Positions 4,766-19,632 of a DNA stretch of 64,000 bases are shown piece after piece. Both the position numbers and the translations under genes were made by a program. Positions within the stretch are counted from its first letter, which is position 1; each line of letters begins with the position of its first letter. The stretch comes from Candidatus Oxydemutator sp. (GTDB taxonomy: Bacteria > Pseudomonadota > Gammaproteobacteria > Poriferisulfidales > Oxydemutatoraceae): positions 2,272,001 to 2,336,000 of the forward strand of contig OZ241883.1 in NCBI GenBank assembly GCA_965203445.1, given 5' to 3'. The notes under the pieces were generated by a model. That model saw only the letters and a program-made list of their open reading frames with translations. It did not search any database and had not been told where the DNA came from.

Positions 4766-5429
4766 TGGCCACGGCCTCGGTGATGCTTTGCAGCGCGGAT
4801 TCGGCGGCGCGTTGCTCGGCCTTGCGCTTCGACGCGCCGCTGCCGCAAGCCTCGAGGCGCAGATCGGAAACCCTGCACGCGACCTCGAAAAACTTCTGGC
4901 CGTCGCGTCTGTGCTCGCACAGCACCTCGTAGATCGGCAATCCGGCGCCGCGCGCCTGCGTGTATTCTTGCAACCTGCTCTTGGCGTCCTTCAGATCATC
5001 ACCGGAAAGCGACGCCAGCGGGCCGGCGAAAAGCGCGCCGACAAAGTCGCGCGCCGCCGCCAAACCGCGTTCCAGATAGAGCGCGCCGATGACGGCTTCG
5101 AGGGCGTCGGCGAGTATCGAGTCGCGCACGCCGTCGCCTTTGTCCTCGCCAGGCCCCAGCACCAGGAACTCGCCCAAGGCGACCGCACGCGCCAATTCGG
5201 ACAAGGTCTCGCCGCGCACCAGGCGCGCACGCAACTTGCTCAAGACGCCCTCATCGGCGTCGGCGAAGCGCGCGTAAAGCAGCTCGGTTACGACCAACTG
5301 CAACACCGCGTCGCCCAGAAACTCGAGACGCTCGTTGTGCGCCGCGCCGGCGCTTCTGTGGGTGACGGCCGCGCGGGACAGCGGCCGTTTCAGAAAATCC
5401 GGATCGAGCAGGTCTGATAGTTTCGGCAT
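4758..5429 (-). CDS. rnc: Ribonuclease III
   Basis: HNERLEFLGDAVL signature, dsRBD DAKSRLQE. Confidence 0.97.
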   Translation of the reverse strand: MPKLSDLLDPDFLKRPLSRAAVTHRSAGAAHNERLEFLGDAVLQLVVTELLYARFADADEGVLSKLRARLVRGETLSELARAVALGEFLVLGPGEDKGDGVRDSILADALEAVIGALYLERGLAAARDFVGALFAGPLASLSGDDLKDAKSRLQEYTQARGAGLPIYEVLCEHRRDGQKFFEVACRVSDLRLEACGSGASKRKAEQRAAESALQSITEAVANV

Positions 5430-6280: not shown

Positions 6281-6398
6281 GCCTGGCGGTGTCCTACTCT
6301 CACACGGGGAGGCCCCGCACTACCATCGGCGATGTGCCGTTTCACTTCCGAGTTCGGAATGGGATCGGGTGGTACCAGCACTCTATGGCCGCCAGGCA
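6281..6398 (-). rRNA. rrf: 5S ribosomal RNA (stand-alone)
   Basis: Minus strand TGCCTGGCGGCCATAG...CCCGATCCCATTCCGAACTCGGAAGTGAAAC...GATGGTAGTG...GAGAGTAGGACACCGCCAGGC. Confidence 0.97.
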
Positions 6399-6811: not shown

Positions 6812-7172
6812 CTAGTAGGCAGTTCGCGCGTGTTTCAGTTGTTGAGGGATTGGCTATACTGGTGATGCTACGGGAAAGCGATCGCCCTTCGATCCGAGGA
6901 GAAGTTTCAGTTGTTGAGGGACTGGCTATACTGGTGATGCTGCTATCTGCGGGCGCGCGGGCACGGGCAGATCGGGTTTCAGTTGTTGAGGGATTGGCTA
7001 TACTGGTGATGCGCCGCCGCGCGCGAGACCGACGCCGAGGATACCGCATGTTTCAGTTGTTGAGGGATTGGCTATACTGGTGATGCCGAGGGGTACGCGG
7101 GGTAGGCGCTTGCGGACGGGCAGGGTTGTGATACACTTCGCCCGTCACTCTTTGGGATTGGTTATACTGGTT

Positions 7173-7274
7173 TGAGGGCGGTGACGCCATCTTCTGCGGG
7201 TGGCGGAACCGATGGCAGAAGATGTGCAAGCGTCAGGAGACCGTCCTCCTCCTGCAATTTAGTAGCCGCCCTCA
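7173..7274. ncRNA. Putative multibranch structured RNA inside the array insert
   Basis: Stems TGAGGGCGG/CCGCCCTCA, CATCTTCTGC/GCAGAAGATG, CAGGAG/CTCCTG; TATACT box at 7163-7168 just upstream on +. Confidence 0.45.
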
Positions 7275-7604
7275 TTCCTTTTGTTTCGCCCTTTTTCTTT
7301 GGTACAGCAGAATCCCGACGCGGCGCCTGTCAATGTATTCCCACTTCGCGCGCAGCACGGTCACAAACACCGAGCCGTCCTCGTGCTCCTGCGCGACCCC
7401 GAGAATGGGACGCGCCTTGTCCTCGCCTCGGAACACCTTGATATAGTGCCTGCGGTATTCGCCTGGCCACGAATACCAGGCCAGCCACTCCTCGTCGGCA
7501 TCCTTCAGCGTCGGTAAATAGAAGTTTGCGTATCGCTCGCGCCAAGTGCGCCTCCCCTTTTTGCCGACGACGACGTGGGTTGCGCCCCCCCAGCCGAATC
7601 TCAC
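7272..7604 (-). CDS. PBECR2-like nuclease domain (MuF C-terminal toxin-like), probably an N-truncated fragment inside the array
   Basis: RERY..YLPTLKDADEEW...YRRHYIKVF...YIDRRRVGILLYQR pattern; the frame stays open up to the repeat at 7636. Confidence 0.6.
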   Translation of the reverse strand: MRFGWGGATHVVVGKKGRRTWRERYANFYLPTLKDADEEWLAWYSWPGEYRRHYIKVFRGEDKARPILGVAQEHEDGSVFVTVLRAKWEYIDRRRVGILLYQRKRAKQKE

Positions 7605-10600
7605 GCCCCCGGCGGGCTCTCCCCGCGTTTTGATGGTTTCAGTTGTTGAGGGATTGGCTATACTGGTGATGCGGTCGGCGCCGGTGGCGAACCACCAGAA
7701 CTTGCGGTTTCAGTTGTTGAGGGATTGGCTATACTGGTGATGCCGAAATCCAGGGGCGCGTGCTCGCGCCCGACGACGGGTTTCAGTTGTTGAGGGATTG
7801 GCTATACTGGTGATGCAGAGGTTTCCTTTGCCGAGTTGGACAAGCGTTGGGGTTTCAGTTGTTGAGGGATTGGCTATACTGGTGATGCGCTTGTGCCAAC
7901 GCCTGCGCACGCGGCGCATTGATGTTTCAGTTGTTGAGGGATTGGCTATACTGGTGATGCCTTTTGCTCGACGCCCTGCAACATTTCCACGTTCGTTTCA
8001 GTTGTTGAGGGATTGGCTATACTGGTGATGCCGCAGCGCGCCGAAGTTCCGCAGCACCCACTCCACGTTTCAGTTGTTGAGGGATTGGCTATACTGGTGA
8101 TGCCCGGCGCCGGCAGCGCGAGCGGCGGCAGGTCAATCGTTTCAGTTGTTGAGGGATTGGCTATACTGGTGATGCCGACGACGCGCTCTACGACGCGGAG
8201 CTTCATGAGTTTCAGTTGTTGAGGGATTGGCTATACTGGTGATGCGATCGCGCAGATGCCGAAGGCCGACATCTATGGCGTTTCAGTTGTTGAGGGATTG
8301 GCTATACTGGTGATGCCGCAAGGTCAAGACTTCCGCGGCGCATAGCCGACGCCAGGCGCATAGCCGACACGGCTATACTGGTGATGCCGCAAGGTCAAGA
8401 CTTCCGCCCCAGGTTTGTGGATGTTTCAGTTGTTGAGGGATTGGCTATACTGGTGATGCTGTTTGGTGTTGTCGAGCGCGGTGGCAGAACTGGTGTTTCA
8501 GTTGTTGAGGGATTGGCTATACTGGTGATGCATACCCGCCCGGCCAATACCACTATATCCCCGGGTAGTTTCAGTTGTTGAGGGATTGGCTATACTGGTG
8601 ATGCGTCAAGTATGGGCGTTCGACGGCCTCCAGCCTATGTTTCAGTTGTTGAGGGATTGGCTATACTGGTGATGCACGGCGCAGGGGAAAACGCGCCTGA
8701 GGTTATGCCGTGTTTCAGTTGTTGAGGGATTGGCTATACTGGTGATGCGGCGCGCTGACTTTGTTCTTGGTCACCTTCGCGGTTTCAGTTGTTGAGGGAT
8801 TGGCTATACTGGTGATGCTCTCACAAACAGTCTGGCCGCGTTTCACATCCCAGTTTCAGTTGTTGAGGGATTGGCTATACTGGTGATGCCGCGTTGGCCG
8901 ACACCGCCGCGCGTGTGCTCGGCAGTTTCAGTTGTTGAGGGATTGGCTATACTGGTGATGCTGATGAAGGCGATTGTGGACATGAGGCCGGCGCCGTTTC
9001 AGTTGTTGAGGGATTGGCTATACTGGTGATGGCCGCGACTGGCGATCAATGCGTGGCGGGGAAGCCGCGTTTCAGTTGTTGAGGGATTGGCTATACTGGT
9101 GATGCTGGGTGTTCGCCAAATCGAAATACGCGGTCAACGCAGTTTCAGTTGTTGAGGGATTGGCTATACTGGTGATGCGAAGTGATCCGCAAGTTCCCCG
9201 CGCACATGACAAGTTTCAGTTGTTGAGGGATTGGCTATACTGGTGATGCCTCCAGCATGGCTTTCTGTTTCGAGTCCAGCCCGCGTTTCAGTTGTTGAGG
9301 GATTGGCTATACTGGTGATGCAGCTCTACACCTCCGTCGTGGCAAATAATGTCCGGAGTTTCAGTTGTTGAGGGATTGGCTATACTGGTGATGCTCCCGT
9401 GCGCGTTCCGCTGGTCGAAAAGAGGCGGCGTTTCAGTTGTTGAGGGATTGGCTATACTGGTGATGCTGTCGTACACGAGCGACGACGGCGACAAGTTTTA
9501 TCGTTTCAGTTGTTGAGGGATTGGCTATACTGGTGATGCATCCCGACTCGTCCGGCAGTCTTTGGGCTCAGGGGTTTCAGTTGTTGAGGGATTGGCTATA
9601 CTGGTGATGCTGCGCTCGGATGGCTGGCGGCGTCGAAGGTCTTGACGTTTCAGTTGTTGAGGGATTGGCTATACTGGTGATGCGCGGGAGGTGATGACGG
9701 CCCTTTCCGAAAACGTGTAGTTTCAGTTGTTGAGGGATTGGCTATACTGGTGATGCATAAAGCAAGGTGTTGATGAGACTATTAGTTTCGGGTTTCAGTT
9801 GTTGAGGGATTGGCTATACTGGTGATGCAATCTCGAAGTGGACATCGCCGACCTGCTGAACGAGCAGTTTCAGTTGTTGAGGGATTGGCTATACTGGTGA
9901 TGCCGTAGCCGCACAAAGATTAAACAGAAAATGGATGTTTCAGTTGTTGAGGGATTGGCTATACTGGTGATGCCGGCGCCGACCCCGCCCCCGGATCCCG
10001 TCCGCGACCGTTTCAGTTGTTGAGGGATTGGCTATACTGGTGATGCGCTGGACCTTCTGCACGAGGCGGCGGTCGGCGCAGGTTTCAGTTGTTGAGGGAT
10101 TGGCTATACTGGTGATGCGTGATGCGCGCTCTTGACCTCTTCTGCGGCGTCGGGTTTCAGTTGTTGAGGGATTGGCTATACTGGTGATGCTTAGAAGTGA
10201 AACAATTATGGTTCGAGGACGCCAGTTTCAGTTGTTGAGGGATTGGCTATACTGGTGATGCGGACGGCACGGCAATCAGAATAAAAGACGTACCGAGTTT
10301 CAGTTGTTGAGGGATTGGCTATACTGGTGATGCCGGTGATAGAGAGAATCAAGAGGGAGGAAAAGTGAGTTTCAGTTGTTGAGGGATTGGCTATACTGGT
10401 GATGCGGCACGTTTGCAGGCACGACCTTGTCGGCGGCACGTTTCAGTTGTTGAGGGATTGGCTATACTGGTGATGCGCGGCTACGCCGTTCGGCCAGGGC
10501 ACCAGGGTCTGTTTCAGTTGTTGAGGGATTGGCTATACTGGTGATGCCGGGGCCGCCGCCGACGTTCCCTTTGTCTCAACAAGTTTCAGTTGTTGAGGGA

Positions 10601-10691
10601 TTGGCTATACTGGTGATGCAGAAAGGCACGCAGAGTTCAGAGATGCTTATCGCAGTTTCAGTTGTTGAGGGATTGGCTATACTGGTGATGC

Positions 10692-10784
10692 CCCATCCCA
10701 AGCCCTTGTTTTACAAGGGCTTGGGATATTTCACAGGGGGCAGAATTTTCGCAAGTAGAGCTATTGCACCAAAGCACGGCGAAT
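10692..10784. promoter_or_regulatory. CRISPR leader with a long palindrome
   Basis: Lower GC; ATCCCAAGCCCTTGT-TTT-ACAAGGGCTTGGGAT next to the last repeat. Confidence 0.65.
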
Positions 10785-10812
10785 TTGCGAAAAGTAACGA
10801 TTGTGCTACGAT
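10785..10812 (+). promoter_or_regulatory. Promoter of tracrRNA-1
   Basis: TTGCGA-N16-TACGAT with an extended -10 TG. Confidence 0.65.
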
Positions 10813-10819
10813 CATGACT

Positions 10820-10946
10820 CCAGTATAGCCAATTCTTGATACTCTGTAATCATAAAAAAGTATCTTGAACGGACCTCTGCATTTTTGCACGTCTGCCTTC
10901 ACTCGATGAAGGATTAAGAAACCGCCTCCGGGCGGTTTCTTTTTTT
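10820..10946 (+). ncRNA. tracrRNA-1, type II-B (Francisella-like)
   Basis: Anti-repeat CCAGTATAGCCAAT, then CTCTGTAATCAT-AAAAGTAT-TTGAACGGACCTCTG-CACGTCTG resembling the FnCas9 tracrRNA as recalled; ends in a terminator. Confidence 0.85.
10916..10946 (+). terminator. Intrinsic terminator (possibly bidirectional, also serving cas4)
   Basis: AAGAAACCGCC-TCCG-GGCGGTTTCTT plus T-run. Confidence 0.85.
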
Positions 10947-10953
10947 CCGACTC

Positions 10954-11547
10954 TCACAATCGGTCATTACAAAAATTCACGTATTCGCAGGTGCAGCACT
11001 GGGCGACCGTCGCACTCGATTCCGGCTTCAGTCCACGCCGCAGCATCCGCCTGATTTTATCCGCCACCTCTGCAACCAGCCGACGCTTGTCCGCGTCAAT
11101 GTCAATCGTATGCAGAACCTTCCCTTTCCCGACCAAGAATCCGGCCGTGCTCGGCTTGGAAAAATGCTCCTCTAACAGCAAGGCATAAGCCGCCAGTTGC
11201 AGTTGGTCGCCGCGCTTCCCGCGGTTTGCGGAAAGCTTGAACTCGACGGCGTACACCGCCTCGTCGGTTTCCACCGCCATGTCCGCGATGCCATGCAGTC
11301 CCAACGCATCGCTGCGCACCGCCAGATTGTGATGGGTTTTCCCGCTCCGCAAATTGAATCTGGAGAGATTGCGACGCTGCCATAATTTTTCCTCTGCCCG
11401 GTGGAAGTGCTCTCCCTGCCCGACCCAGACGGGGCGATGAAAAGCAACATCGGTCAACTCCATGTAATACACGACCCGCGGGCAGTAGCACCACTGCCGG
11501 ATTAAATTTACCGGAATGCTATATGGCAAGGGTTTCCTCCCAATCAT
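10954..11547 (-). CDS. cas4: CRISPR-associated exonuclease Cas4
   Basis: QWCYCPR, GIAD, VEFK, QLAAYA, CCTCEYVNFC Fe-S cysteines; start may be as far up as 11574. Confidence 0.93.
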   Translation of the reverse strand: MIGRKPLPYSIPVNLIRQWCYCPRVVYYMELTDVAFHRPVWVGQGEHFHRAEEKLWQRRNLSRFNLRSGKTHHNLAVRSDALGLHGIADMAVETDEAVYAVEFKLSANRGKRGDQLQLAAYALLLEEHFSKPSTAGFLVGKGKVLHTIDIDADKRRLVAEVADKIRRMLRRGLKPESSATVAQCCTCEYVNFCNDRL

Positions 11548-11821
11548 GGAAATCGCTCTTTTCGTGGCCGACAAAATAACTCCGCCCCCGCCCGTTGAAG
11601 TTGGTATGCGTAATAAATGCCTTGTCCGCCTGCCCCAGGCTATCGTGCAGGTAGCGTTTAATCGCCTCCAGCTCCGCCAGCGTCAGATACCCCCAAAACA
11701 CCGACTTCTGCACGGCTCTGAGCCCGTGCTTCCCCAACTCCATAAAAACGCGGGCGCGCGTTTTATTGTCTTCCACGTCGTAGCTGACCAGATACTCCTG
11801 CCGCAATGGATAATTCTTCAT
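11519..11821 (-). CDS. cas2: CRISPR-associated Cas2
   Basis: YLVSYDVEDNKTR, VQKSVFWG. Confidence 0.95.
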   Translation of the reverse strand: MKNYPLRQEYLVSYDVEDNKTRARVFMELGKHGLRAVQKSVFWGYLTLAELEAIKRYLHDSLGQADKAFITHTNFNGRGRSYFVGHEKSDFHDWEETLAI

Positions 11822-11830
11822 GCCGCCAAA

Positions 11831-12787
11831 TCACCACTTGAACAAATAAGGCCGATAGTTTTGCTCGCCGTAGAAATGACCGCACAAACGATAAACTTGG
11901 CGCTGGATAATATGTTCCAATTTGTGCTTCTTTCTGCGATACGTGTATTTCTTGGCGCACGTTTTCTGTATTTCCCCTATCAACGCCTTCTTCAGGGCGA
12001 CATCCAGAACCGTTCGCCCCTCGCTGCGGGAGCGCAACTTGACTACGGCGCGATCAACCACCCACGCGCGGTATTCTTCCATGACGTCGAGCACCAGCGC
12101 CATTTTCCCCGGCCGCCGGACGTGCATGACGCCGAGATAAGGCTCCAGCCCGGCGTTGATAATCGCGCTCAGGATATAACTGCTCAACACCGCGTAACCG
12201 AGATTGAGCATGGCGTTGTTGATTTCCCCGCTTCCCCGCCCCTCGCGCCTCGTGAACGAAGCCGAAAACAGCCGCGCTTGCCGCAAACCCTGAAAATAGG
12301 CATTGGCGCCGGCACCCTCGAAACCGAGCAAGGTCTCGAGGTCTCTCGCGTGTGGCGCCTTGTCCGCGTGTGCCCGCAATTCATCGGCGGCGGAGCGCAG
12401 AAACGGATGCCTGTGATATTTGTCGAGATGGTTCAGCACGGCGCGCTGATTTTTCAGTTTTGCGACGACGATCCTCCGCGCCAGCGGCATCGTGTCGCGC
12501 TGGCAAAAAGCCATCTGCGCCTGGCGCACCGCCACCACACCGTGTTGCGACTGTCCCAAAATCGCCGAGTGTGCGACACCGCGAAAATCCAAAAAAAATA
12601 ACTTGATGCCGCGGCTGCTGAAAGCCTCGATCAGATCGCTCGATATGCTGACGCCGCGTTTGGCGATGGAGACGGTGCACAGGCGATTGAGCGGATAGTG
12701 CCTGCTTTCTCCATCCTGCCTGACCACCAAGCGATGGCTGTTCAGCCCCAAAAAAGCCCCATAGTCGCCGATGACAAGGTGTTTCAT
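11831..12787 (-). CDS. cas1: CRISPR-associated endonuclease Cas1
   Basis: LLGFEGAGANAYF, NAMLNLGY, GLEPYLGVMH, LDVMEEYR; 318 aa. Confidence 0.96.
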   Translation of the reverse strand: MKHLVIGDYGAFLGLNSHRLVVRQDGESRHYPLNRLCTVSIAKRGVSISSDLIEAFSSRGIKLFFLDFRGVAHSAILGQSQHGVVAVRQAQMAFCQRDTMPLARRIVVAKLKNQRAVLNHLDKYHRHPFLRSAADELRAHADKAPHARDLETLLGFEGAGANAYFQGLRQARLFSASFTRREGRGSGEINNAMLNLGYAVLSSYILSAIINAGLEPYLGVMHVRRPGKMALVLDVMEEYRAWVVDRAVVKLRSRSEGRTVLDVALKKALIGEIQKTCAKKYTYRRKKHKLEHIIQRQVYRLCGHFYGEQNYRPYLFKW

Positions 12788-12880
12788 GGTGTGATCGTGC
12801 CGGCCAGCCGCGGGCTTGGCCGCGTACTTGACCTGGTCTATAGACCGGTATTATAGTCTATATAACACAGGGAGCAGGCC

Positions 12881-13123
12881 ATGACCAAAGAAAACATCGG
12901 ATCTTACGAGGCGAAAACGAAGCTGCCCGAACTGTTGAGGCGGGTGCAGGCGGGCGAGGCCTTTACGATAACCAGACGTGGCAAGCCCATAGCGGACCTG
13001 CTGCCCAGCCAGGCCGGGGCGCGACAAAAGACGGCGGCCGCCATTGACAACATCGCTGCCATGGGCAAACGGACGGTCTCCGAGCGTCGCCTGAAAGAAT
13101 ATAGAGACAAAGGCCGCGAGTGA
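12881..13123 (+). CDS. Phd/YefM family antitoxin
   Basis: IGSYEAKTKLPELLRRVQAGE.FTITRRGKPIADL. Confidence 0.9.
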   Translation: MTKENIGSYEAKTKLPELLRRVQAGEAFTITRRGKPIADLLPSQAGARQKTAAAIDNIAAMGKRTVSERRLKEYRDKGRE

Positions 13124-13545
13124 CGACCTTCGTGCTGGATAATTCAGTGGCAATGCGTTGGCTGCTCGCAACTCCCAGCCCTTCGGGGCAGAAGTATGCC
13201 GGGAAGGTCCTGCAAAGCATGAAAGACGCGGACGCGCTCGTGCCCGCGCTCTGGCACCTCGAAGCGGCCAATGTCCTGCTCCACGCCGAAAGAGACGGCC
13301 AGATAACGACCGGCCAGGCACAAGCGTTTGTCTCACAACTGAAAAATCTGCCCATTACGATTGATTCACCGACCCAGACAAATTCGGTCGACCGAATTAT
13401 GGCGCTGGCTCGGTCATACAACCTCAGCAGTTACGACGCCGCCTATCTGGAGATTGCCACCCGCAATTCGGTACGGCTCGCCACCCTGGACAGATCGCTG
13501 GCAAAAGCAGCGAGGAAAGCGGGAGTAGGTATCTATCTGAAATAA
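13120..13545 (+). CDS. vapC: VapC/PIN-domain toxin
   Basis: FVLDNSVAMRW, WHLEAANVL, SSYDAAYLE, LATLD; coupled to the antitoxin. Confidence 0.9.
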   Translation: MTTFVLDNSVAMRWLLATPSPSGQKYAGKVLQSMKDADALVPALWHLEAANVLLHAERDGQITTGQAQAFVSQLKNLPITIDSPTQTNSVDRIMALARSYNLSSYDAAYLEIATRNSVRLATLDRSLAKAARKAGVGIYLK

Positions 13546-13561
13546 GAAAGCACCAGTGTGC

Positions 13562-13828
13562 TCAAGTAGTCTTCGCCTTCAGCGGGAACCGCGCAGGATT
13601 TCGGATGATTTCTCTGCTCAGATCAACGTCTATCATCGGCCAGTAATAATGATCCGCAGATAATTGCTCCACTTTAAGGATCGCCTCAACGGGCTGCCCC
13701 TTGAACCAGGGAAAATCCTCGTAGGACAGAAATAACTCCTCATCATGTGCAAGCAGCCATATACCGTGGGTAGATATATGGGTAACTTCAACTTCTGAAG
13801 TAGTCTTTCCAGGCATTGATGAGTTCAT
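13562..13828 (-). CDS. DUF2442 domain protein
   Basis: EVTHISTHGIWL, FLSYEDFPWF, YYWPMIDVDLS, PARFPL. Confidence 0.8.
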   Translation of the reverse strand: MNSSMPGKTTSEVEVTHISTHGIWLLAHDEELFLSYEDFPWFKGQPVEAILKVEQLSADHYYWPMIDVDLSREIIRNPARFPLKAKTT

Positions 13829-16800
13829 TGTGATGGTTCTCTATAGATTTCCAATTCCTTATAACCTATCTCAGTTTCTTCCATCGTTTCATCATCCCTA
13901 AGTGTTGCTCGGGGACCCAGTTTGGTGATAGCCCACGGCCCACTTTTCCCATCAATACGAACCCTATCACCCCGTTTGAATATTTTGAGTATTTTATAAT
14001 TCACTGGAAGTTCTTTATCTATTTCATTTCTTTCATAAACTGGCTGAGACTTATCCTTCCAATAAAACTTATTCGTAATACGAACAGCATCTATTTTATC
14101 TTTTCCATCTTTATTATATTGAATAACCATAACTTTATCCCAAGAAACCGTCCGTCTAAAGTGATGCATGCCTTTTGTATTTTTATCTTTTCTTCGCCAC
14201 ATCTGTTGAACTCCCATGCCCCCTCGGACACCAGGACCCACCCTTACGCAACGAACTGACCGTGTATTCTTGGGGTGTAAAATATGCTCCTGGGGCAGCC
14301 TCAGAAAATAAGAATGCGTAATTGTTCTCTTATCACCGCTTCCATTTGTCATTTCTTTTTTTCTGTCATCCGGCATATCATCGATTTTTTCCCATGCTTT
14401 TTCCATTGCCATCCTGATAGGCTCGGACTGTATATTCCCGATATTCTTTTTTTGAATCTTCTCCAACGGTTTTCTTTGTGTAATCATGCCGTCCAAACAA
14501 CGCAAAGGTTCAGTATCCGTTTTGCTGCATTCGATCTTTCCTTCATTTCTCTTGTCTTCAACATACCAACCCGAAGATTTATCGGGAGCCAACAAATTCC
14601 CTCTGCCGTCTTCTCTTAGATTGATAAAAGCAGGGGCATTTTCCTTCCTTGCCTGCTTACGAACATCACTATTCAAGCGTTTGATCGCTTCCCAATCTAC
14701 ATTTGCTGCCAAGACCACAGCATCAAGGGCATGGTGGAACTCTCTGATGGGATCATCTTTCGCTGGCTCAACAATCACCTTAAACCTTTTCACGGCAATT
14801 TTGGTCTTTATCATAACTTTGATATTCGAGATCTCCCCCGTACTTTTGTCTACAACTTCCACATCGCACCATGGTACATATTTACCATTACCTCTTTTCC
14901 TGTAACACTTCTTCAGTGTCCCAACCAATTTATTACCCTTGACAGATAGCCAATCATTACCTGCTTCCTCATCATTCTTACGATATTTAAGCTTTACAGA
15001 AGCATTAGCACCTTCCAACAATTTACTTAGTTTTTTATCCTTTGAGAAAACATCTTCCAATAACAACTCTAATTCTTGATCAAGCTGTCCTTTTGTCTCA
15101 TAGAGAGTTTCATCTTTCTTTTTTCCACTCGTTTTGCCTTCCTTTACTACTTCAAGGACGAAGTTTTTATTGTTACAGTTCTCTAACCAAAACTGGTTTG
15201 TCCCTACTGCATTATCATCCGGAGTCCCGACAAGCATCACTTTCCCATTATTTTTGTCCGTTCGAATTTCCAGCCAGTCAGTTACCCCTTCATCATAGTC
15301 TTTACAGATAGAAACCTCCCCATCAAATAAATACTCATCCAACTTCAGCTTTGAAAGTTCATATTTGAATTCTTCACCTGCCTTTGTTTTGTATGGATTC
15401 CTAAATCGTATAGCCCGCTTCTGCCGATCCATAAACGGAAACCAGAACCGACGAAGATAAATTGAATCACCTGAACGTATTTTGTGAATCACCTCTGATG
15501 GCAAGTTAAATTCATCCATAAAAGCCTGTTTCAAGAGTTTCGCCCCGAACATGGTGTGCTGTGGGGCAGCAAGCATATCCTCAGGCAGTCTCCTGTCTGC
15601 CTCCAAACGGGATTGAATGAATTTGTGCTTCTCAGGATTATTATTCTCAATCAAAGAAAGGACATTCTTATCCAGAGGCTCCCTCCGGTTGTGCTTATCA
15701 ATATTGCAAATTGAATGACCGATTACTTTATTCCGGGCAATATTTCCCCCACCTTTTGATTTAGGGAACAGATGATCAATATGAGCGTCACTATGCAAAA
15801 ACTCACCACAAAATATGCAACGGCCACCTTGATCCGCCCTAAGCGTGGCCATATCCCCACCCGCCGACTGTTGATACTGTTTCGGCTTGAGCTTCTTCTT
15901 CAGCTTCTTACCTTCACTCTGAGCCAGAGCACTGATATCAAAACGCGCTGTCTCTATACCTACATGTTCAATAGGTATCGGCGAATTTCTGAGGTCTCGT
16001 ACCTCCTGCTCCTTCAACATCTTGCGCACAACAACAGTGATTTTTTCAACTTTCTGCCGTATTGAGGGTGGCGCGTCATCTTTCAATGTTAAAACACGCT
16101 CTTCATGAAGCCTCGCCCATGAATTGCCCTTGGTTTCATCGCGCTCCAAAAGGTTCAGTTTTTGTTCCAGGTGCTTAATACAAAAACCTGCTCTGCCGGG
16201 CTGTTCCCCACAAATAATATCCCTGAGAATATCTTTCTTGCCTCTCGCCTCGTTCTCTGCGGGGAGAACATAGCGATTTCCCCTACTGTTAGTAAAAAAT
16301 TGATTAATAGTTTCCTGATTTTTATTTTTGATAACTCCGTCTAGTTCTTTCACAAACTCCAAACTATTCATCAACTTCTGTATTTCACTCTCATCCAACT
16401 TGTCTTTATTCCCATTGGCACGCCTCACATTCATTTGACGCAACTCAATTTCAAACTGAAGTCTGCGAACGTCTTTCCTGCGCTTTTTAGGGAGATTAAG
16501 TCCGCAACGTGTTCCATCATCGTCAGTAGCTGCCGGGCATTTGCCCATGCTATTGCGGTTGTTGAATCTTTTCTTGCGATATTCACGATTGACTACCTTT
16601 GTTGCTGCCTTAATCCATCGCTTTTTTATTTCTGTAGGGGTAGTACCTGCTCTATGAGCGATTTCACTGGCCTTATTATGAACATCCGCCATTGATTGTT
16701 GCCAATCCTGTTTTATTTTGGCCATAGACAAGATCTGTCTGTTCTGATTGACTTTGCTTTTCTTCAAACCCTGGAAGGTTTCATCCAGGCAAATTTGAAA

Positions 16801-17790
16801 GCGATCCTGCTCCAAGCCACAGGCGACTTTCATCAGGTTTTCCAACCCGCTTAGCATTTCCTCACGATGGCGATTACGATGTGGACGATAAACTTTGCCT
16901 TCCTCAAAAAGCTTCTCACCTGTTTGTAGGCCAAGCATAGTCATAATGCGAGTAACAATTTCTTCTTCCTGAGGTATGGTACTTCCAGCCCCATAGACCA
17001 AACCAAGGCGTTCTTTGATCCAGCTCTTTATATCCTCTGGCACAGCATCTTGAAGTTTTATTTCCAGTGCCTCATAAACCACTTCCTGCCTGGCAAGCTC
17101 CTCCATGACTGAAGAATCTTTTTCGGCTTTTTTTCTGAGATCGTGAATCTCTTTAGCTTTCTCATAAAGCTCACCCAGGCAGCTCCGTTCCTCTTTTATT
17201 TTTATAAAGGAAACAGTTTTGTCAGAAAATTTTTGAGACTCACTATGCCTTGAACGCCTGTTGAATTCTTGTCTTGCGTTGTCTTGGGCTTGTTTGTATT
17301 CCTCGTCTGATTCATTCTTGTATTTCCTACGCCCTTTCTCGTTAAATTCCGCGGGCGCATTAAATTCCTGAAGAAGAATCCTGTCAACTTCTTTAACTAT
17401 TAGAGGGCATTTAGGAGATTTACCATCATCAGTTTTGACAACGAGCAATTCAAGCAAGCTCGCATAGTCCCATCCACGATAATGGGCTAGCGCATAAAGG
17501 CGGTTTCCAAGAGAAGCCTTATCTCTCTCAGTCTGTTTCTCCCCCGGTTTCGCATTTCTTGGCTCCAACCCCATGCCTTTAAGAAGCGCATAGAAGTCGC
17601 GTAGCCGCCTCGCCTTGGAAAGTTTCCGCCTGCGTTGTCCCCTGTTGACGCGACGTTTTTGGAGAGTATCCGATAGCGTAGTGCGATGTTTGAGAACTTT
17701 ATAATCCAGGACTTCATTACTTGAACTCAACAAGCCAACGCCTGTATATGCGTAACCGAAGTCAATCCCTAATCTGAAGGACTTATTCAT
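13825..17790 (-). CDS. cas9: Type II CRISPR effector Cas9 (Cas9d/II-D-like core with large insertions), ~1321 aa
   Basis: RuvC-I LGIDFG..YTG, Arg-rich bridge helix, RuvC-II GIETARFD, HNH GRCIFCG..HIDHLFP..CN..K, RuvC-III HHALDA; ATG 17790 with AGGTGG RBS. Confidence 0.9.
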   Translation of the reverse strand: MNKSFRLGIDFGYAYTGVGLLSSSNEVLDYKVLKHRTTLSDTLQKRRVNRGQRRRKLSKARRLRDFYALLKGMGLEPRNAKPGEKQTERDKASLGNRLYALAHYRGWDYASLLELLVVKTDDGKSPKCPLIVKEVDRILLQEFNAPAEFNEKGRRKYKNESDEEYKQAQDNARQEFNRRSRHSESQKFSDKTVSFIKIKEERSCLGELYEKAKEIHDLRKKAEKDSSVMEELARQEVVYEALEIKLQDAVPEDIKSWIKERLGLVYGAGSTIPQEEEIVTRIMTMLGLQTGEKLFEEGKVYRPHRNRHREEMLSGLENLMKVACGLEQDRFQICLDETFQGLKKSKVNQNRQILSMAKIKQDWQQSMADVHNKASEIAHRAGTTPTEIKKRWIKAATKVVNREYRKKRFNNRNSMGKCPAATDDDGTRCGLNLPKKRRKDVRRLQFEIELRQMNVRRANGNKDKLDESEIQKLMNSLEFVKELDGVIKNKNQETINQFFTNSRGNRYVLPAENEARGKKDILRDIICGEQPGRAGFCIKHLEQKLNLLERDETKGNSWARLHEERVLTLKDDAPPSIRQKVEKITVVVRKMLKEQEVRDLRNSPIPIEHVGIETARFDISALAQSEGKKLKKKLKPKQYQQSAGGDMATLRADQGGRCIFCGEFLHSDAHIDHLFPKSKGGGNIARNKVIGHSICNIDKHNRREPLDKNVLSLIENNNPEKHKFIQSRLEADRRLPEDMLAAPQHTMFGAKLLKQAFMDEFNLPSEVIHKIRSGDSIYLRRFWFPFMDRQKRAIRFRNPYKTKAGEEFKYELSKLKLDEYLFDGEVSICKDYDEGVTDWLEIRTDKNNGKVMLVGTPDDNAVGTNQFWLENCNNKNFVLEVVKEGKTSGKKKDETLYETKGQLDQELELLLEDVFSKDKKLSKLLEGANASVKLKYRKNDEEAGNDWLSVKGNKLVGTLKKCYRKRGNGKYVPWCDVEVVDKSTGEISNIKVMIKTKIAVKRFKVIVEPAKDDPIREFHHALDAVVLAANVDWEAIKRLNSDVRKQARKENAPAFINLREDGRGNLLAPDKSSGWYVEDKRNEGKIECSKTDTEPLRCLDGMITQRKPLEKIQKKNIGNIQSEPIRMAMEKAWEKIDDMPDDRKKEMTNGSGDKRTITHSYFLRLPQEHILHPKNTRSVRCVRVGPGVRGGMGVQQMWRRKDKNTKGMHHFRRTVSWDKVMVIQYNKDGKDKIDAVRITNKFYWKDKSQPVYERNEIDKELPVNYKILKIFKRGDRVRIDGKSGPWAITKLGPRATLRDDETMEETEIGYKELEIYREPSQ

Positions 17791-17804
17791 AACCCACCTG
17801 AATG

Positions 17805-17939
17805 TAAAACAATACCCTGCATAAAGCAGGGTATTGTAGATTTTGCTCGCCCTCAAGCGGTGACTTACTGAAAACAGAGCATCGCCTGCAAAAAACGATG
17901 GTGCCAGCAAGCACCTCGGACTTTTTTCAGTTGTTGAGG
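17805..17939 (-). ncRNA. tracrRNA-2 candidate upstream of cas9
   Basis: 15-nt perfect anti-repeat CCTCAACAACTGAAA (17925-17939), several hairpins, terminator ACAATACCCTGC/GCAGGGTATTGT followed by TTT. Confidence 0.75.
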
Positions 17940-17943
17940 CCTG

Positions 17944-17971
17944 ATTGTAACGACGAAGAAAAAACTGTCAA
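17944..17971 (-). promoter_or_regulatory. Promoter of tracrRNA-2/cas9
   Basis: TTGACA-N16-TACAAT directly upstream of the anti-repeat. Confidence 0.8.
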
Positions 17972-17987
17972 GCCCTGATGTGTTGTT

Positions 17988-18638
17988 CTACATTGGCGTC
18001 GCAGGGGTTGCGAAGTCGTCGTCGTAGAAATAGTGTCCCTTCAGCCGTTTGACGTTGAAAATGAGTATTTCGCTATGGAACAGTATGCCGTCGAACACGT
18101 TCTTCGGGAGGCTGATTATCGAGCATATCTCGGGATAAGTGCCGTCTACAAACTTGATCCAGCGCCTCGATTGTTGCGTCTGGTTCAGGCGCAATCCGTA
18201 AGGGGTGAACAGCACAATCGGGATGCTTTTGCCGAACAGTTCTATCGCTTTTTGCAGCCACACTTCCGGCAGCAATGGCCTGCCACCATAATTTTCTACC
18301 AGATGCGCTTTCGTCTTCGGGTCAATGTTGAACGGGGGGTTCATTATCACGAGGCCAGGCTCCTTCAGCTCTCCCTTCTTTACCTTCAGATAATTCCTGA
18401 CCCGCGTCCTCGGAAAACCCTGCTTTTCTATATCAATGCCGACAACGTCAAACCCGTTCTCCTCGAAAGGCCGCAGCAACGAACCCTCGCCCACGCACGG
18501 GTCGAGCACCGGCTTCGACTTGTCAATGCGCTTGCCGACCAGTTCATACAGGAACCGGCTGACACCTTCCGGCGTCTGTATCGTGGATTTCTTTTGTCGG
18601 TTGTAAAAATTATTGCGATCAACTCTGTACATCGTCAT
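17988..18638 (-). CDS. Solitary N6-adenine DNA methyltransferase
   Basis: VLDPCVGEG (motif I) and MNPPF (motif IV); GGAGGAG RBS. Confidence 0.8.
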   Translation of the reverse strand: MTMYRVDRNNFYNRQKKSTIQTPEGVSRFLYELVGKRIDKSKPVLDPCVGEGSLLRPFEENGFDVVGIDIEKQGFPRTRVRNYLKVKKGELKEPGLVIMNPPFNIDPKTKAHLVENYGGRPLLPEVWLQKAIELFGKSIPIVLFTPYGLRLNQTQQSRRWIKFVDGTYPEICSIISLPKNVFDGILFHSEILIFNVKRLKGHYFYDDDFATPATPM

Positions 18639-19632
18639 CAACTCCTCCGATTGTATTCCTTCGCCCGCTCCCCCACAAACTCCGAATCGCCGCGATTCCG
18701 TGGCCGCCGTGATGTCGGCATTGTGCCAAATCTTCCGGGCCAAGGCCGCCCAATCCGTACACCGGCATCGGCGCGTCTTGCACCAGCGTCGCAAAAGCAT
18801 CCCATCCCAATCCGCGCGCGCCGGGGTGTCCCGGCGTCTCCCGCACCGGTCCCAGCACCGCGAAGTCGGCGTCGAGCGAGGCCGCCGTTTTCAGTTCGTC
18901 CGCGTTGTGGCACGAGGCGCCAAACCAACGGCCCGCGGCCACCGGGCGACGGCGGCAGCGTCGCAATGCGGCGGCGCTCAGGTGCACGCCGGCGGCACCG
19001 GCGCCCGGGTGCGCAAGCAATGCGGGGTCGCGGTCGTGCAGCAGGACGCGCGCATGAAAAGCAGCGGCATCAGTCGCCATGCGACGAGCCAGTTCCTCGT
19101 AATCGTCGTCGTCCAGGCGATTGTCCCTGAACACGGCGAGGCGCACGCCGCGTTCCAGCGCGCGGCGGAAGCATTGCAGAAAGCGCGCGGGGTGTTCGAC
19201 GTTCGGGGTGATCAGGTAGCGGTCGGGAAGCCTCAGCGCGTTGATCATGGCGCGGCTTGCGGGCGGAAAGTCCGGCGCGCGCAGGGCCTCGATTTTCGTC
19301 CAGCGCAAGTCGTTGTCGCCGGCCAGGCGCGGGGCGCCGTCGAAGTCGCGCACCGTGAACACGTGAAAACGCAGGCGGCGCTCCCGGTAGCGCCACGGAA
19401 ATTGAATCAGGGGTTCGGAATTGCGCGCGACGACGCCGGTTTCTTCCTTCAGTTCGCGGGCAAGCGCCCGCTCGGGGGATTCGCCCGGCTCGATCTTGCC
19501 GCCGGGAAACTCGCGCAGGCCGCCCTGATGAACTTCGGGACGGCGCACAGAGGTCAGAACGGAGTCGGCGCGTCGCACCAGGCCGATTGCGATGGAGATC
19601 ACGGGGAATGGATCGGAGTCGGGCAAGAACAA
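18619..19632 (-). CDS. mutT: MutT Nudix hydrolase fused to a thiamine-phosphate-synthase-like domain
   Basis: EFPGGKIEPGE..ALARELKEETG; ASCHNADEL, PVYGLGG; start may be GTG 19602. Confidence 0.85.
   Translation of the reverse strand: MFLPDSDPFPVISIAIGLVRRADSVLTSVRRPEVHQGGLREFPGGKIEPGESPERALARELKEETGVVARNSEPLIQFPWRYRERRLRFHVFTVRDFDGAPRLAGDNDLRWTKIEALRAPDFPPASRAMINALRLPDRYLITPNVEHPARFLQCFRRALERGVRLAVFRDNRLDDDDYEELARRMATDAAAFHARVLLHDRDPALLAHPGAGAAGVHLSAAALRRCRRRPVAAGRWFGASCHNADELKTAASLDADFAVLGPVRETPGHPGARGLGWDAFATLVQDAPMPVYGLGGLGPEDLAQCRHHGGHGIAAIRSLWGSGRRNTIGGVDDDVQS

Follow-up and report, generated by a model that had tools for sequence, protein, structure and literature searches.

We analysed a stretch of 64,000 nucleotides (nt) from Candidatus Oxydemutator sp. 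(contig OZ241883.1, positions 2,272,001 to 2,336,000), referred to here as the window, and found in it a type II CRISPR (short palindromic repeats that are clustered and regularly interspaced) locus, in which a cas9-like gene of the Cas9d kind stands together with an array, adaptation genes and a trans-activating CRISPR RNA (tracrRNA) of the II-B kind. The reading that we prefer, with a probability of about 0.7, is that of an intact, probably active chimeric type II locus, where a large Cas9d-related effector and an RNA encoded upstream of it form a cassette inside a II-B locus. That this is a new variant within type II is well supported.

The effector is encoded on the minus strand, in an open frame that runs from 17910 to 13825. 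We preferred the ATG at 17790 as the start, since an AGGTGGG ribosome-binding site precedes it and the homologues align from residue 1. The resulting protein (13825..17790) has 1321 amino acids (aa) and the N-terminus MNKSFRLGIDFGY, and it was recognised by its reading frame, by matches in Pfam, NCBIfam and the Protein Data Bank (PDB), and by family and hhalign comparisons. A preliminary description, made from the letters of this DNA, had proposed a Cas9 of ~1320 aa; the uninterrupted frame and the many homologues bear this out and speak against a chance open reading frame (ORF). The predicted domain order is RuvC-I, an arginine-rich bridge helix, an enlarged REC lobe, a CCCH zinc site, RuvC-II, HNH, inserted beta domains, RuvC-III and a WED/PI-like C-terminus.

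Next, we examined the conservation of the putative active sites in an alignment of 29 family members, with rows of 1095-1499 aa. Residues E613, D618, D672, N687, C695, K699, H1020 and D1023 were invariant, while D10, H673, N696 and H1019 were conserved in at least 90% of the rows. Among them are all the residues assigned to RuvC (D10, E613, H1020, D1023) and to HNH (D672-H673, N696), so that both sets of motifs are intact, as had been noted before. The HNH motif itself (C658, C661, D672-H673, N687, C695-N696; 15676..15819, minus strand) was identified from the Pfam HNH_4/HNH matches and from its conserved columns. The Cys/His motifs resembling zinc ligands, also noticed earlier, correspond to a candidate CCCH zinc site of REC2 (C418, C429 ... 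C537, H540; 16171..16539, minus strand), for which the evidence is family conservation, with C418, C429 and C537 invariant, and the alignment to Cas9d. The four residues align to Cas9d residues having the sequence context of C182, C187, C264 and H267; this mapping was inferred from the sequence context (the HMMER chain was unnumbered), and H540 was counted from the translation. According to the available text of PMC11903963, this site of Cas9d (C182/C187/C264/H267) binds zinc and contacts stem 3 of the single-guide RNA (sgRNA).

The assignment to Cas9d comes from several sequence comparisons. Pfam matched the effector at the RRXRR bridge-helix region and at HNH only. The NCBIfam model of Cas9d, NF049971, gave 114 bits against a cut-off of 375, eight other members of the family scored 84-132 bits on it, likewise below the cut-off, and the IscB model NF040563 gave 60.6 bits against 175. 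In a phmmer search of the PDB at E<=0.01, six Cas9d sequences were matched with E values of 1e-19 to 1e-21 (8zq9/9auf, 8w2z, 9lgi, 8w2s, 9k32, 8zdr), and the sole other match was a weak one of the HNH region to the maturase reverse transcriptase 6me0 (E 0.0044). The Cas9d match consists of four collinear blocks (effector/Cas9d residues 2-114/2-102, 356-783/120-485, 1019-1138/496-601 and 1249-1297/674-722), the third and fourth of which match only weakly, with i-Evalues of 150 and 5000. With hhalign, the family profile aligned to one compact Cas9d over 750 columns (1-1233 against 1-770 of 774; prob 100, E 1.2e-44), and to a profile of 21 compact Cas9d over 728 collinear columns (prob 100, E 3e-105). 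Thus, the proposal of a Cas9d core expanded by several hundred residues holds from end to end, and the effector can be solidly classed, from its sequence, as a predicted nuclease with a Cas9d core.

The same comparisons bear on the possibility that the protein is an ordinary II-B or II-C Cas9 which divergence has made to look unusual. A length of 1321 aa is typical of II-B, as is the cas1-cas2-cas4 context, but the effector gave no match to TIGR03031 (II-B; cut-off 399 bits) or TIGR01865 at E<=0.01, though both models recovered their true members within the same analyses. The collinear full-length match goes to Cas9d. A collinear alignment of that kind to II-B or II-C Cas9, which the preliminary description had named as the finding that would overturn it, was not obtained: the family aligned to one II-B Cas9 over 296 columns (prob 47, E 1.9e-4), to four II-B Cas9 over 161 columns (prob 79, E 1.6e-5) and to the genome's own II-C Cas9 over 77 HNH columns (prob 57, E 1.1e-4), compared with 279 columns for P0082, a larger protein of the former II-C2 type (prob 99, E 7e-18). 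The II-B coverage centres on RuvC-II/HNH, and neither the II-B nor the II-C alignments reach residues 115-300; only the alignment to one II-B Cas9 continues from residue 301 through the remaining REC lobe. A CCCH zinc site is also present, which the available part of PMC9755519 reports as absent from the Cas9 proteins described before. We consider divergence from an ordinary Cas9 extremely improbable.

We then compared the lengths of the segments between the aligned blocks, taking the borders from the PDB phmmer blocks and from the hhalign alignment to one Cas9d. The first added segment is a REC insertion region (residues 115-355; 16726..17448, minus strand), which falls in a gap between Cas9d-aligned blocks and comprises about 245 aa, ~185 of them before the RHREE helix and ~60 after it. 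It is present in 29/29 family rows, at 166-247 aa. The distances reported earlier were correct: ~190 aa separate RGWDYA (105-110) from RNRHREE (305-311; nt ~17460-16880), and the ~85 extra aa said to precede NREYRKKRFNNR (401-412) agree with a measured ~90 aa from RHREE, against ~25 in Cas9d. A fold of residues 96-372, predicted from 34 aligned sequences, was all-helical with a mean predicted local distance difference test (pLDDT) of 88.7 and a predicted template-modelling (TM) score of 0.82. When this fold was compared with the PDB by Foldseek, the check proposed in the preliminary description, 0 matches were obtained at E<=0.001 (best E 0.76), and no Cas9 was among the matches listed. The available text of PMC11903963 describes the engineering of SpCas9 REC2 into Cas9d between E102 and E103, which resulted in faster cleavage; residue 114 of the effector aligns to Cas9d residue 102, so the natural insertion starts at the equivalent of the engineered site.

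A second insertion, overlooked before, lies between the L2/RuvC-III entry (RRFWFP) and HHALDA, just before the RuvC-III HHxxD motif (residues 784-1018; 14737..15441, minus strand), in the gap from 485 to 496 of the Cas9d alignment. It comprises about 225-235 aa and its length varies from 47 to 398 aa over the 29 rows, with the extremes in P0028 (47 aa; a protein of 1095 aa) and in P0017 and P0018 (398 aa; ~1499 aa). The fold of residues 775-1030, predicted from 31 aligned sequences, was beta-rich (pLDDT 91.2). Its best Foldseek match in the PDB was to the accessory domains of GH107, which are tandem immunoglobulin (Ig)-like domains (E 6e-4), followed by dystroglycan, ZP-N and cadherins, at TM-scores of ~0.2; no Cas9 was found among these matches. 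This insertion probably consists of two beta-sandwiches, for which we use the label Ig-like with modest confidence. Pfam searches with the two insertions alone returned a chance-level Nup85 match for the REC insertion and nothing for the second one. In the ESM Atlas the second insertion came nearest to RuvC_III clusters (0.80-0.88, below the reliability level of the tool), a lead that neither Pfam nor Foldseek backs. The expansion had previously been placed in REC; the REC insertion does exist, while about half of the extra length is in fact the beta-rich insertion in RuvC-III. It had also been said that described Cas9d proteins are well under 1000 aa, which is slightly too strong, as the available texts give, for Cas9d/Cas9c2, 600-1050 aa (PMC9755519) and 600-970 aa (PMC12339737). 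At 1321 aa, the effector exceeds the wider of these ranges.

To see how widespread such proteins are, we searched large collections. Among 5.8 billion proteins, a word-indexed search retrieved 24 members with the effector counted in, all of them metagenomic and none of them named; members at 52-57% identity had 1301-1370 aa and those at 37-40% identity had 1275-1499 aa. A HMMER scan of 1.84 billion representatives of 50% identity clusters, with residues 1-1200 as the query, gave 27 representatives at E<=1e-30, 18 of them having 1095-1359 aa and the remainder 308-901 aa (likely fragments). Beyond this threshold there was a gap, after which proteins of 700-774 aa followed at E 1e-15 and 1e-13; on the NCBIfam Cas9d model these two scored 408 bits, which passes the cut-off, and 290 bits, which falls short of it. 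The effector therefore is, by these sequence searches, a member of a clade without a name, whose putative nucleases are related to Cas9d and large (about 1100-1500 aa). Scanning genome contigs with the family revealed one further locus, L001, in a gammaproteobacterial metagenome-assembled genome (MAG). No family locus was found in metagenome contigs, with the family alignment and P0003 as queries, or in viral contigs; 60 relatives gave nothing beyond HNH-only matches, and another 400 genomes of the class yielded no family member. The ESM Atlas holds a cluster, possibly of the effector family, whose representative of 1293 aa bears the automatic name 'Cas9d family protein', so long proteins labelled Cas9d exist in databases.

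The surroundings of the effector gene are of another kind. On the plus strand, repeat detection revealed two arrays, A (6832..7086, 4 repeats) and B (7636..10691, 42 detected repeats of 37 nt); 44/46 of their 37-nt repeats have the same sequence, and the 43 spacers (33-38 nt) share, for the most part, the GC-richness of the host. They are followed by cas4 (10954..11574, minus strand; Pfam, NCBIfam), which is 73% identical to the Cas4 of the true II-B locus L014, cas2 (11519..11821, minus strand; Pfam CRISPR_Cas2), which is 75-79% identical to the Cas2 of II-B loci, cas1 (11831..12787, minus strand), which is 78% identical over 318 aa to the Cas1 of L014, and a DUF2442 gene (13562..13828, minus strand; Pfam), the start of which overlaps the stop codon of cas9. 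L014 lies in the MAG that also holds L001. Its Cas9 scored 622 bits on TIGR03031, and behind cas9 come cas1, cas2, cas4, an FtrA-like RNA and an array whose repeat closely resembles that of the window; between the last repeat and cas4, the two loci share 83% identity. The genome G006 (identical to G315), of the same family as that of the window, also has a true II-B locus with DUF2442 and an alike repeat. There, a 67% identical DUF2442 homologue (L033, 10025-10288) is situated between the II-B cas9 and cas1, and DUF2442 may be an unrecognised accessory gene of such loci. The window locus has the cas1-cas2-cas4 module, repeat and tracrRNA of II-B and lacks a Csx12-type Cas9, and the complete one-contig genome has no TIGR03031 match anywhere. 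A II-B module of array, FtrA-like RNA, cas4, cas2, cas1 and DUF2442 in a genome without a II-B Cas9 makes the locus chimeric, and this we regard as solidly established.

The base composition follows this division. The G+C content of the window is ~70% and dips to 41-44% over 14-18 kb; by gene it is 0.42 for cas9 and 0.47 for DUF2442, rises to 0.54-0.57 in cas1/2/4 and reaches 0.65-0.71 in host genes. Three metagenome runs contain contigs that cover 10655-13844 and are 90-97% alike to the window, and in one of the runs, X6, a 55-nt piece with 6 differences also covers 17996-18050, at the edge of an ORF at 17988-18800; almost nothing at least 85% alike was found in between, and nothing of that likeness spans most of 13845-17995. 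One contig of 4996 nt showed four short collinear patches inside cas9, as from a diverged allele of the same family. These data suggest that cas9 and the upstream RNA form a low-GC cassette (13845-17995) in the cas9 position of an otherwise ordinary II-B locus; the direction of this exchange we infer.

The upstream RNA is the first of two candidate tracrRNAs. It would have ~130 nt in the sense of cas9 (17805..17941, minus strand), and was identified by its unique anti-repeat 15-mer, its fold and the layout of L001. The anti-repeat (17939..17925) is a perfect 15-nt complement of repeat nt 2-16; the 15-mer has 47 matches in the 64 kb, namely the 46 repeats and this site, where 0.00 were expected. 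The best-scoring promoter-like site in 10600-18100, TTGACA-16-TACAAT (11/12; 17944..17971, minus strand), lies 4-5 nt before the anti-repeat, and a terminator scan found a hairpin of 12 bp with a T run (17809..17837, minus strand) ~100 nt beyond the anti-repeat, just before the ribosome-binding site of cas9. The z-score of the fold was -4.6. In L001, which has a Cas9 38% identical to the effector, a different repeat and no adaptation genes, an 11-mer matching its own repeat stands in the same place and orientation, as the sole occurrence outside the array (0.01 expected), and both upstream elements have in common the motifs GGCTTGACA and TGAAAAAA-TCC-AGG. As the anti-repeat co-varies with the local repeat, we take the upstream RNA as the cognate tracrRNA of the family. 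No FtrA-like RNA was found at E<=1 in the 19 kb of L001, and no anti-repeat RNA was found upstream of cas9 in L014, the sole true II-B locus checked for it.

The second candidate is of the II-B kind (10812..10948, plus strand), and has at its 5' end an anti-repeat of full length, though imperfect, while a terminator lies at 10916-10941. At a relaxed threshold, Rfam RF02747 FtrA ('Francisella sRNA A', a small RNA) matched 10825-10943 with 41 bits (E 0.0027, model positions 1-111); we take FtrA to be the type II-B tracrRNA of Francisella, and our literature search found no paper saying so. A search of the literature for the 15-nt motif of this RNA was also negative. Its fold z-score was -5.0, and a promoter-like TTGCGA-N16-TACGAT, seen by eye and not listed by the promoter scan, lies just upstream. 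Two true II-B loci have a homologous RNA in the same place, with an identical core and 31 pairs, 3 of them compensatory. In the metagenome run X3, several contigs share only the ~35-nt core (10845-10879) with differing flanks and compensating hairpins, and many related II-B type loci thus appear to be present in that sample.

From these results, the following mechanism may be proposed. The effector would have kept the whole compact Cas9d plan, including the C-terminal WED/PI region, with three additions, namely the helical REC insertion, the size-variable beta-sandwich module and smaller C-terminal additions. The array would be transcribed on the plus strand; the first 16 nt of the repeat would pair with the 5' anti-repeat of the ~130-nt RNA, made from the promoter upstream of cas9 and acting as the cognate tracrRNA of the effector family; RNase III would trim the duplex; and DNA flanked by a protospacer-adjacent motif (PAM) would be cut by RuvC and HNH of the effector. 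The II-B tracrRNA could be a recent leftover or could still help in processing or adaptation. The intact ORF, the conserved catalytic residues, the long homogeneous array, the host-like spacers and an RNase III gene 1.4 kb from the array (4785..5396, minus strand; TIGR02191, 205 bits) argue that the locus is probably an intact, working DNA-targeting system.

Several results weigh against this reading, and they concern the model scores, the spacers, the cassette, the phylogeny and the RNAs. A II-C Cas9 scored 153 bits on NF049971, above the 114 bits of the effector, so the latter score alone says little. No array spacer matched phages or plasmids, and none matched the own genome at <=5 mismatches; against 120 relatives, the sole spacer-length candidate was 30/34 nt in G002, too weak and isolated to give a PAM. 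The related contigs of the three metagenome runs may carry either this family or a II-B cas9 in the cassette position.

For the phylogeny, we built two quick LG+G4 trees rooted on two IscB rows, with 21/29 family rows and 15/34 Cas9d matches (near-duplicates dropped); of the large Cas9s they include at most four II-B rows, one II-C row and no II-A rows. The family was monophyletic in both (Shimodaira-Hasegawa-like approximate likelihood-ratio test, SH-aLRT, 99), and in both it stood apart from compact Cas9d, grouped with II-B, II-C, P0082/P0101 and P0199 (96-97). Its nearest neighbour shifted from the single II-B row in the first tree to the II-C row in the second, which had four II-B rows. 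Approximately unbiased (AU) tests did not reject a clade that joins the family to Cas9d (p 0.062), and they did not reject a clade with II-B either (p 0.47), so the REC expansion could also date back to the stem lineage of the large Cas9s; we ascribe the unstable placement to long branches and to the thin sampling of large Cas9s. An independent REC expansion, as proposed in the preliminary description, is thus supported as to the insertion and unsupported as to its independence.

The trees leave room for a history in which the family is an early-branching sister of II-B Cas9 with a Cas9d-like core, having inherited the II-B module, with the FtrA-like RNA as its cognate. This would agree with the II-B row as neighbour in the first tree (SH-aLRT 98), with the small likelihood cost of a family + II-B clade in the AU test (delta lnL 0.75), with the position on the large-Cas9 side in both trees (97), and with an intact II-B tracrRNA that fits the repeat in a genome without another II-B effector. 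However, Cas1 is 78% identical to a II-B Cas1, yet the Cas9s can be aligned only around HNH, the effector and the II-B Cas9 of L014 sharing a 78-residue HNH patch (E 0.006). Compact Cas9d aligned to the II-B profile over 217 columns (prob 88, E 3e-6), so that the family, with its 161 columns (E 1.6e-5), does not come any nearer to II-B than compact Cas9d, and the sister relation vanished with four II-B rows. L001 also stands against it, since it combines a different repeat with a lack of adaptation genes and of an FtrA-like RNA, though its genome has a separate true II-B locus, and so does the step in G+C at the borders of the cassette. We regard this history as improbable.

As for the RNAs, the comparison of upstream elements covers just the two family loci for which DNA is at hand, and in L001 the anti-repeat has only 11 nt and the fold is not significant (z 0.16). 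The II-B tracrRNA is intact, its anti-repeat fits the array repeat, and changes in related contigs avoid its conserved core, as under purifying selection; an RNA so maintained is arguably still in use, possibly by the effector. In silico, it bound the repeat with -32.9 kcal/mol against -24.2 kcal/mol for the upstream RNA, and in a three-strand fold the CRISPR RNA (crRNA) paired with it while the upstream RNA folded on itself.

It may be, then, that the effector uses the FtrA-like tracrRNA and that the upstream anti-repeat belongs to a regulatory 5' leader, which might, for example, sense pre-crRNA or attenuate cas9 transcription at the hairpin 17837-17809. Besides the in silico preference of the crRNA, the terminator directly before the cas9 ribosome-binding site fits this, as cas9 expression then needs read-through, and within the upstream RNA there is a repeat-like stretch to which its anti-repeat can pair. 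On the other hand, L001 has the upstream element without an FtrA-like RNA, the effector does not resemble II-B Cas9 in its RNA-binding parts, and the 15-nt duplex starts beside the spacer, at nt 2 of the repeat, which is where the guide duplex of a Cas9 starts. The ~130 nt also fit the size of Cas9d tracrRNAs (117 nt in NsCas9d, in the available text of PMC12339737). A leader function is in our view rather unlikely. The best pairing with the repeat involved nt 2-16 for the upstream RNA and nt about 14-32 for the II-B RNA, largely different parts, and a joint role of both is conceivable, though purely speculative. In a version of this kind, a subtype-level clade derived from Cas9d would have independently enlarged both its REC lobe and its RuvC domain, displaced the Csx12-type Cas9 of a II-B locus and loaded guides by means of its own upstream tracrRNA, the II-B tracrRNA being kept so that RNase III has a duplex of sufficient length for crRNA 3' processing, or for the II-B adaptation proteins. 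Such a natural two-tracrRNA, effector-swapped system is an unlikely scheme. For the locus as a whole, we retain the chimera with an upstream RNA cassette as the preferred reading.

A few further features of the window were observed. Arrays A and B are 549 nt apart (7087-7635), and the gap holds a degenerate repeat remnant at ~7145-7170 and a 110-aa ORF (7272-7604, minus strand) matching PBECR2, a phage nuclease of the Barnase/EndoU/ColicinE5-D/RelE-like kind (E 5e-12). In array B, a 106-nt gap between repeats (8317-8422) probably contains two spacers around a repeat too degenerate for the limit of 6 mismatches. A 5S ribosomal RNA gene (6281-6396, minus strand) and the RNase III gene lie within 0.5-2 kb of the far end of the array. 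Between cas1 and DUF2442 there is a phd/PIN toxin-antitoxin pair (12881..13545, plus strand; Pfam) with a promoter-like site at 12828-12857; the phd/YefM antitoxin and PIN toxin genes are absent at that position from the two true II-B loci compared. The ORF at 17988-18800 (minus strand, 270 aa), with a weak match to an N6-DNA-methylase, borders the cassette. In L001 (11936-12981), a gene that encodes a cyclic-nucleotide-binding protein stands between a small array of 7 repeats and an eighth repeat, and upstream of cas9 this locus has a cobalamin riboswitch and the gene of a TonB-dependent receptor.

The 2.38-Mb genome of the window also has a second, ordinary II-C system (L022, G000:C1:1455000-1474999), with a Cas9 of 1048 aa, cas1 and cas2. 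The idea that this Cas9 serves the array of the window was rejected, as its own array has ~40 repeats of an unrelated 36-nt sequence and 30-nt spacers.

Our literature searches found no named larger subtype ('type II-E', 'Cas9e', 'II-D2' or 'Cas9d2'), and no description of a Cas9d-like effector this large, of a beta-sandwich insertion in RuvC-III, of a II-B module combined with an effector not of the Csx12 kind, or of an anti-repeat RNA upstream of such a gene. Going by their available texts, subtype II-D now merges the former II-C2 and the smallest Cas9s, in loci that share cas1-cas2-cas4 and a monophyletic Cas1 (PMC12669027, Makarova 2025), Cas9d seldom comes with adaptation genes (PMC9755519), and recent mining of Cas9d restricted its candidates to 400-1000 aa (bioRxiv 10.64898/2026.08.17.745286), a filter by which the effector family would have been skipped.

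The above results suggest that CRISPR effectors can grow by insertion and can be exchanged between systems. Cas9d is regarded as the compact, ancestral-like end of Cas9 evolution, and on the way from IscB to the large Cas9s it is chiefly the enlargement of the REC lobe that lacks an explanation. A recognisable Cas9d core with a natural REC insertion at the site where an engineered one made cleavage faster offers a direct natural test case for this evolution. The locus would also be an example of a cassette exchange by which a class 2 effector and its RNA came to stand within a foreign module of adaptation genes and array, a process often assumed and rarely this plain. How tracrRNA, repeat and effector remain compatible after such an exchange is a question that the locus makes testable. 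In addition, the family is an unexplored source of nucleases.

Among the known systems, the compact II-D Cas9d proteins (MG34-1-like, 747 aa; NsCas9d, 762 aa; 8zq9, 9auf, 8w2z, 9lgi) have the same domain order as the effector. Shared with them are the RRXRR bridge helix, the RHREE helix, the NxxYRxKRFNNR linker, the REC2 CCCH site and the RuvC/HNH catalytic residues, as well as a long candidate tracrRNA (~130 nt) and spacers of ~35 nt, against ~37 in the NsCas9d locus; the C-terminal blocks align weakly. The effector differs from these proteins of 700-800 aa in having 1321 aa, with ~245 extra residues in REC and ~225 before the RuvC-III motif, in belonging to a family that lies outside the compact Cas9d clade in 2/2 trees and reaches 84-132 bits on NF049971, and in its adaptation module of the II-B kind. 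With the II-B loci L014 and L018, the window has in common the order cas9-(DUF2442)-cas1-cas2-cas4-tracrRNA-array, a 37-nt repeat beginning with GTTTCAG, the FtrA-like tracrRNA and Cas1/Cas2/Cas4 proteins that are 71-79% identical, whereas its effector is not of the Csx12 type, with likeness confined to RuvC-II/HNH, and the anti-repeat RNA upstream of cas9 is extra with respect to L014. The engineered Cas9d with SpCas9 REC2, as presented in the available text of PMC11903963, carries its insert at the equivalent point; the insertion of the window is natural, comprises ~185 + 60 aa, occurs family-wide and matched no solved REC domain in the fold search. Finally, the locus resembles IscB/OMEGA systems in its RuvC-HNH core and in a putative guide-scaffold RNA that directly precedes the nuclease gene and has the same orientation, and differs from them in a far larger effector that is accompanied by a CRISPR array and adaptation genes.

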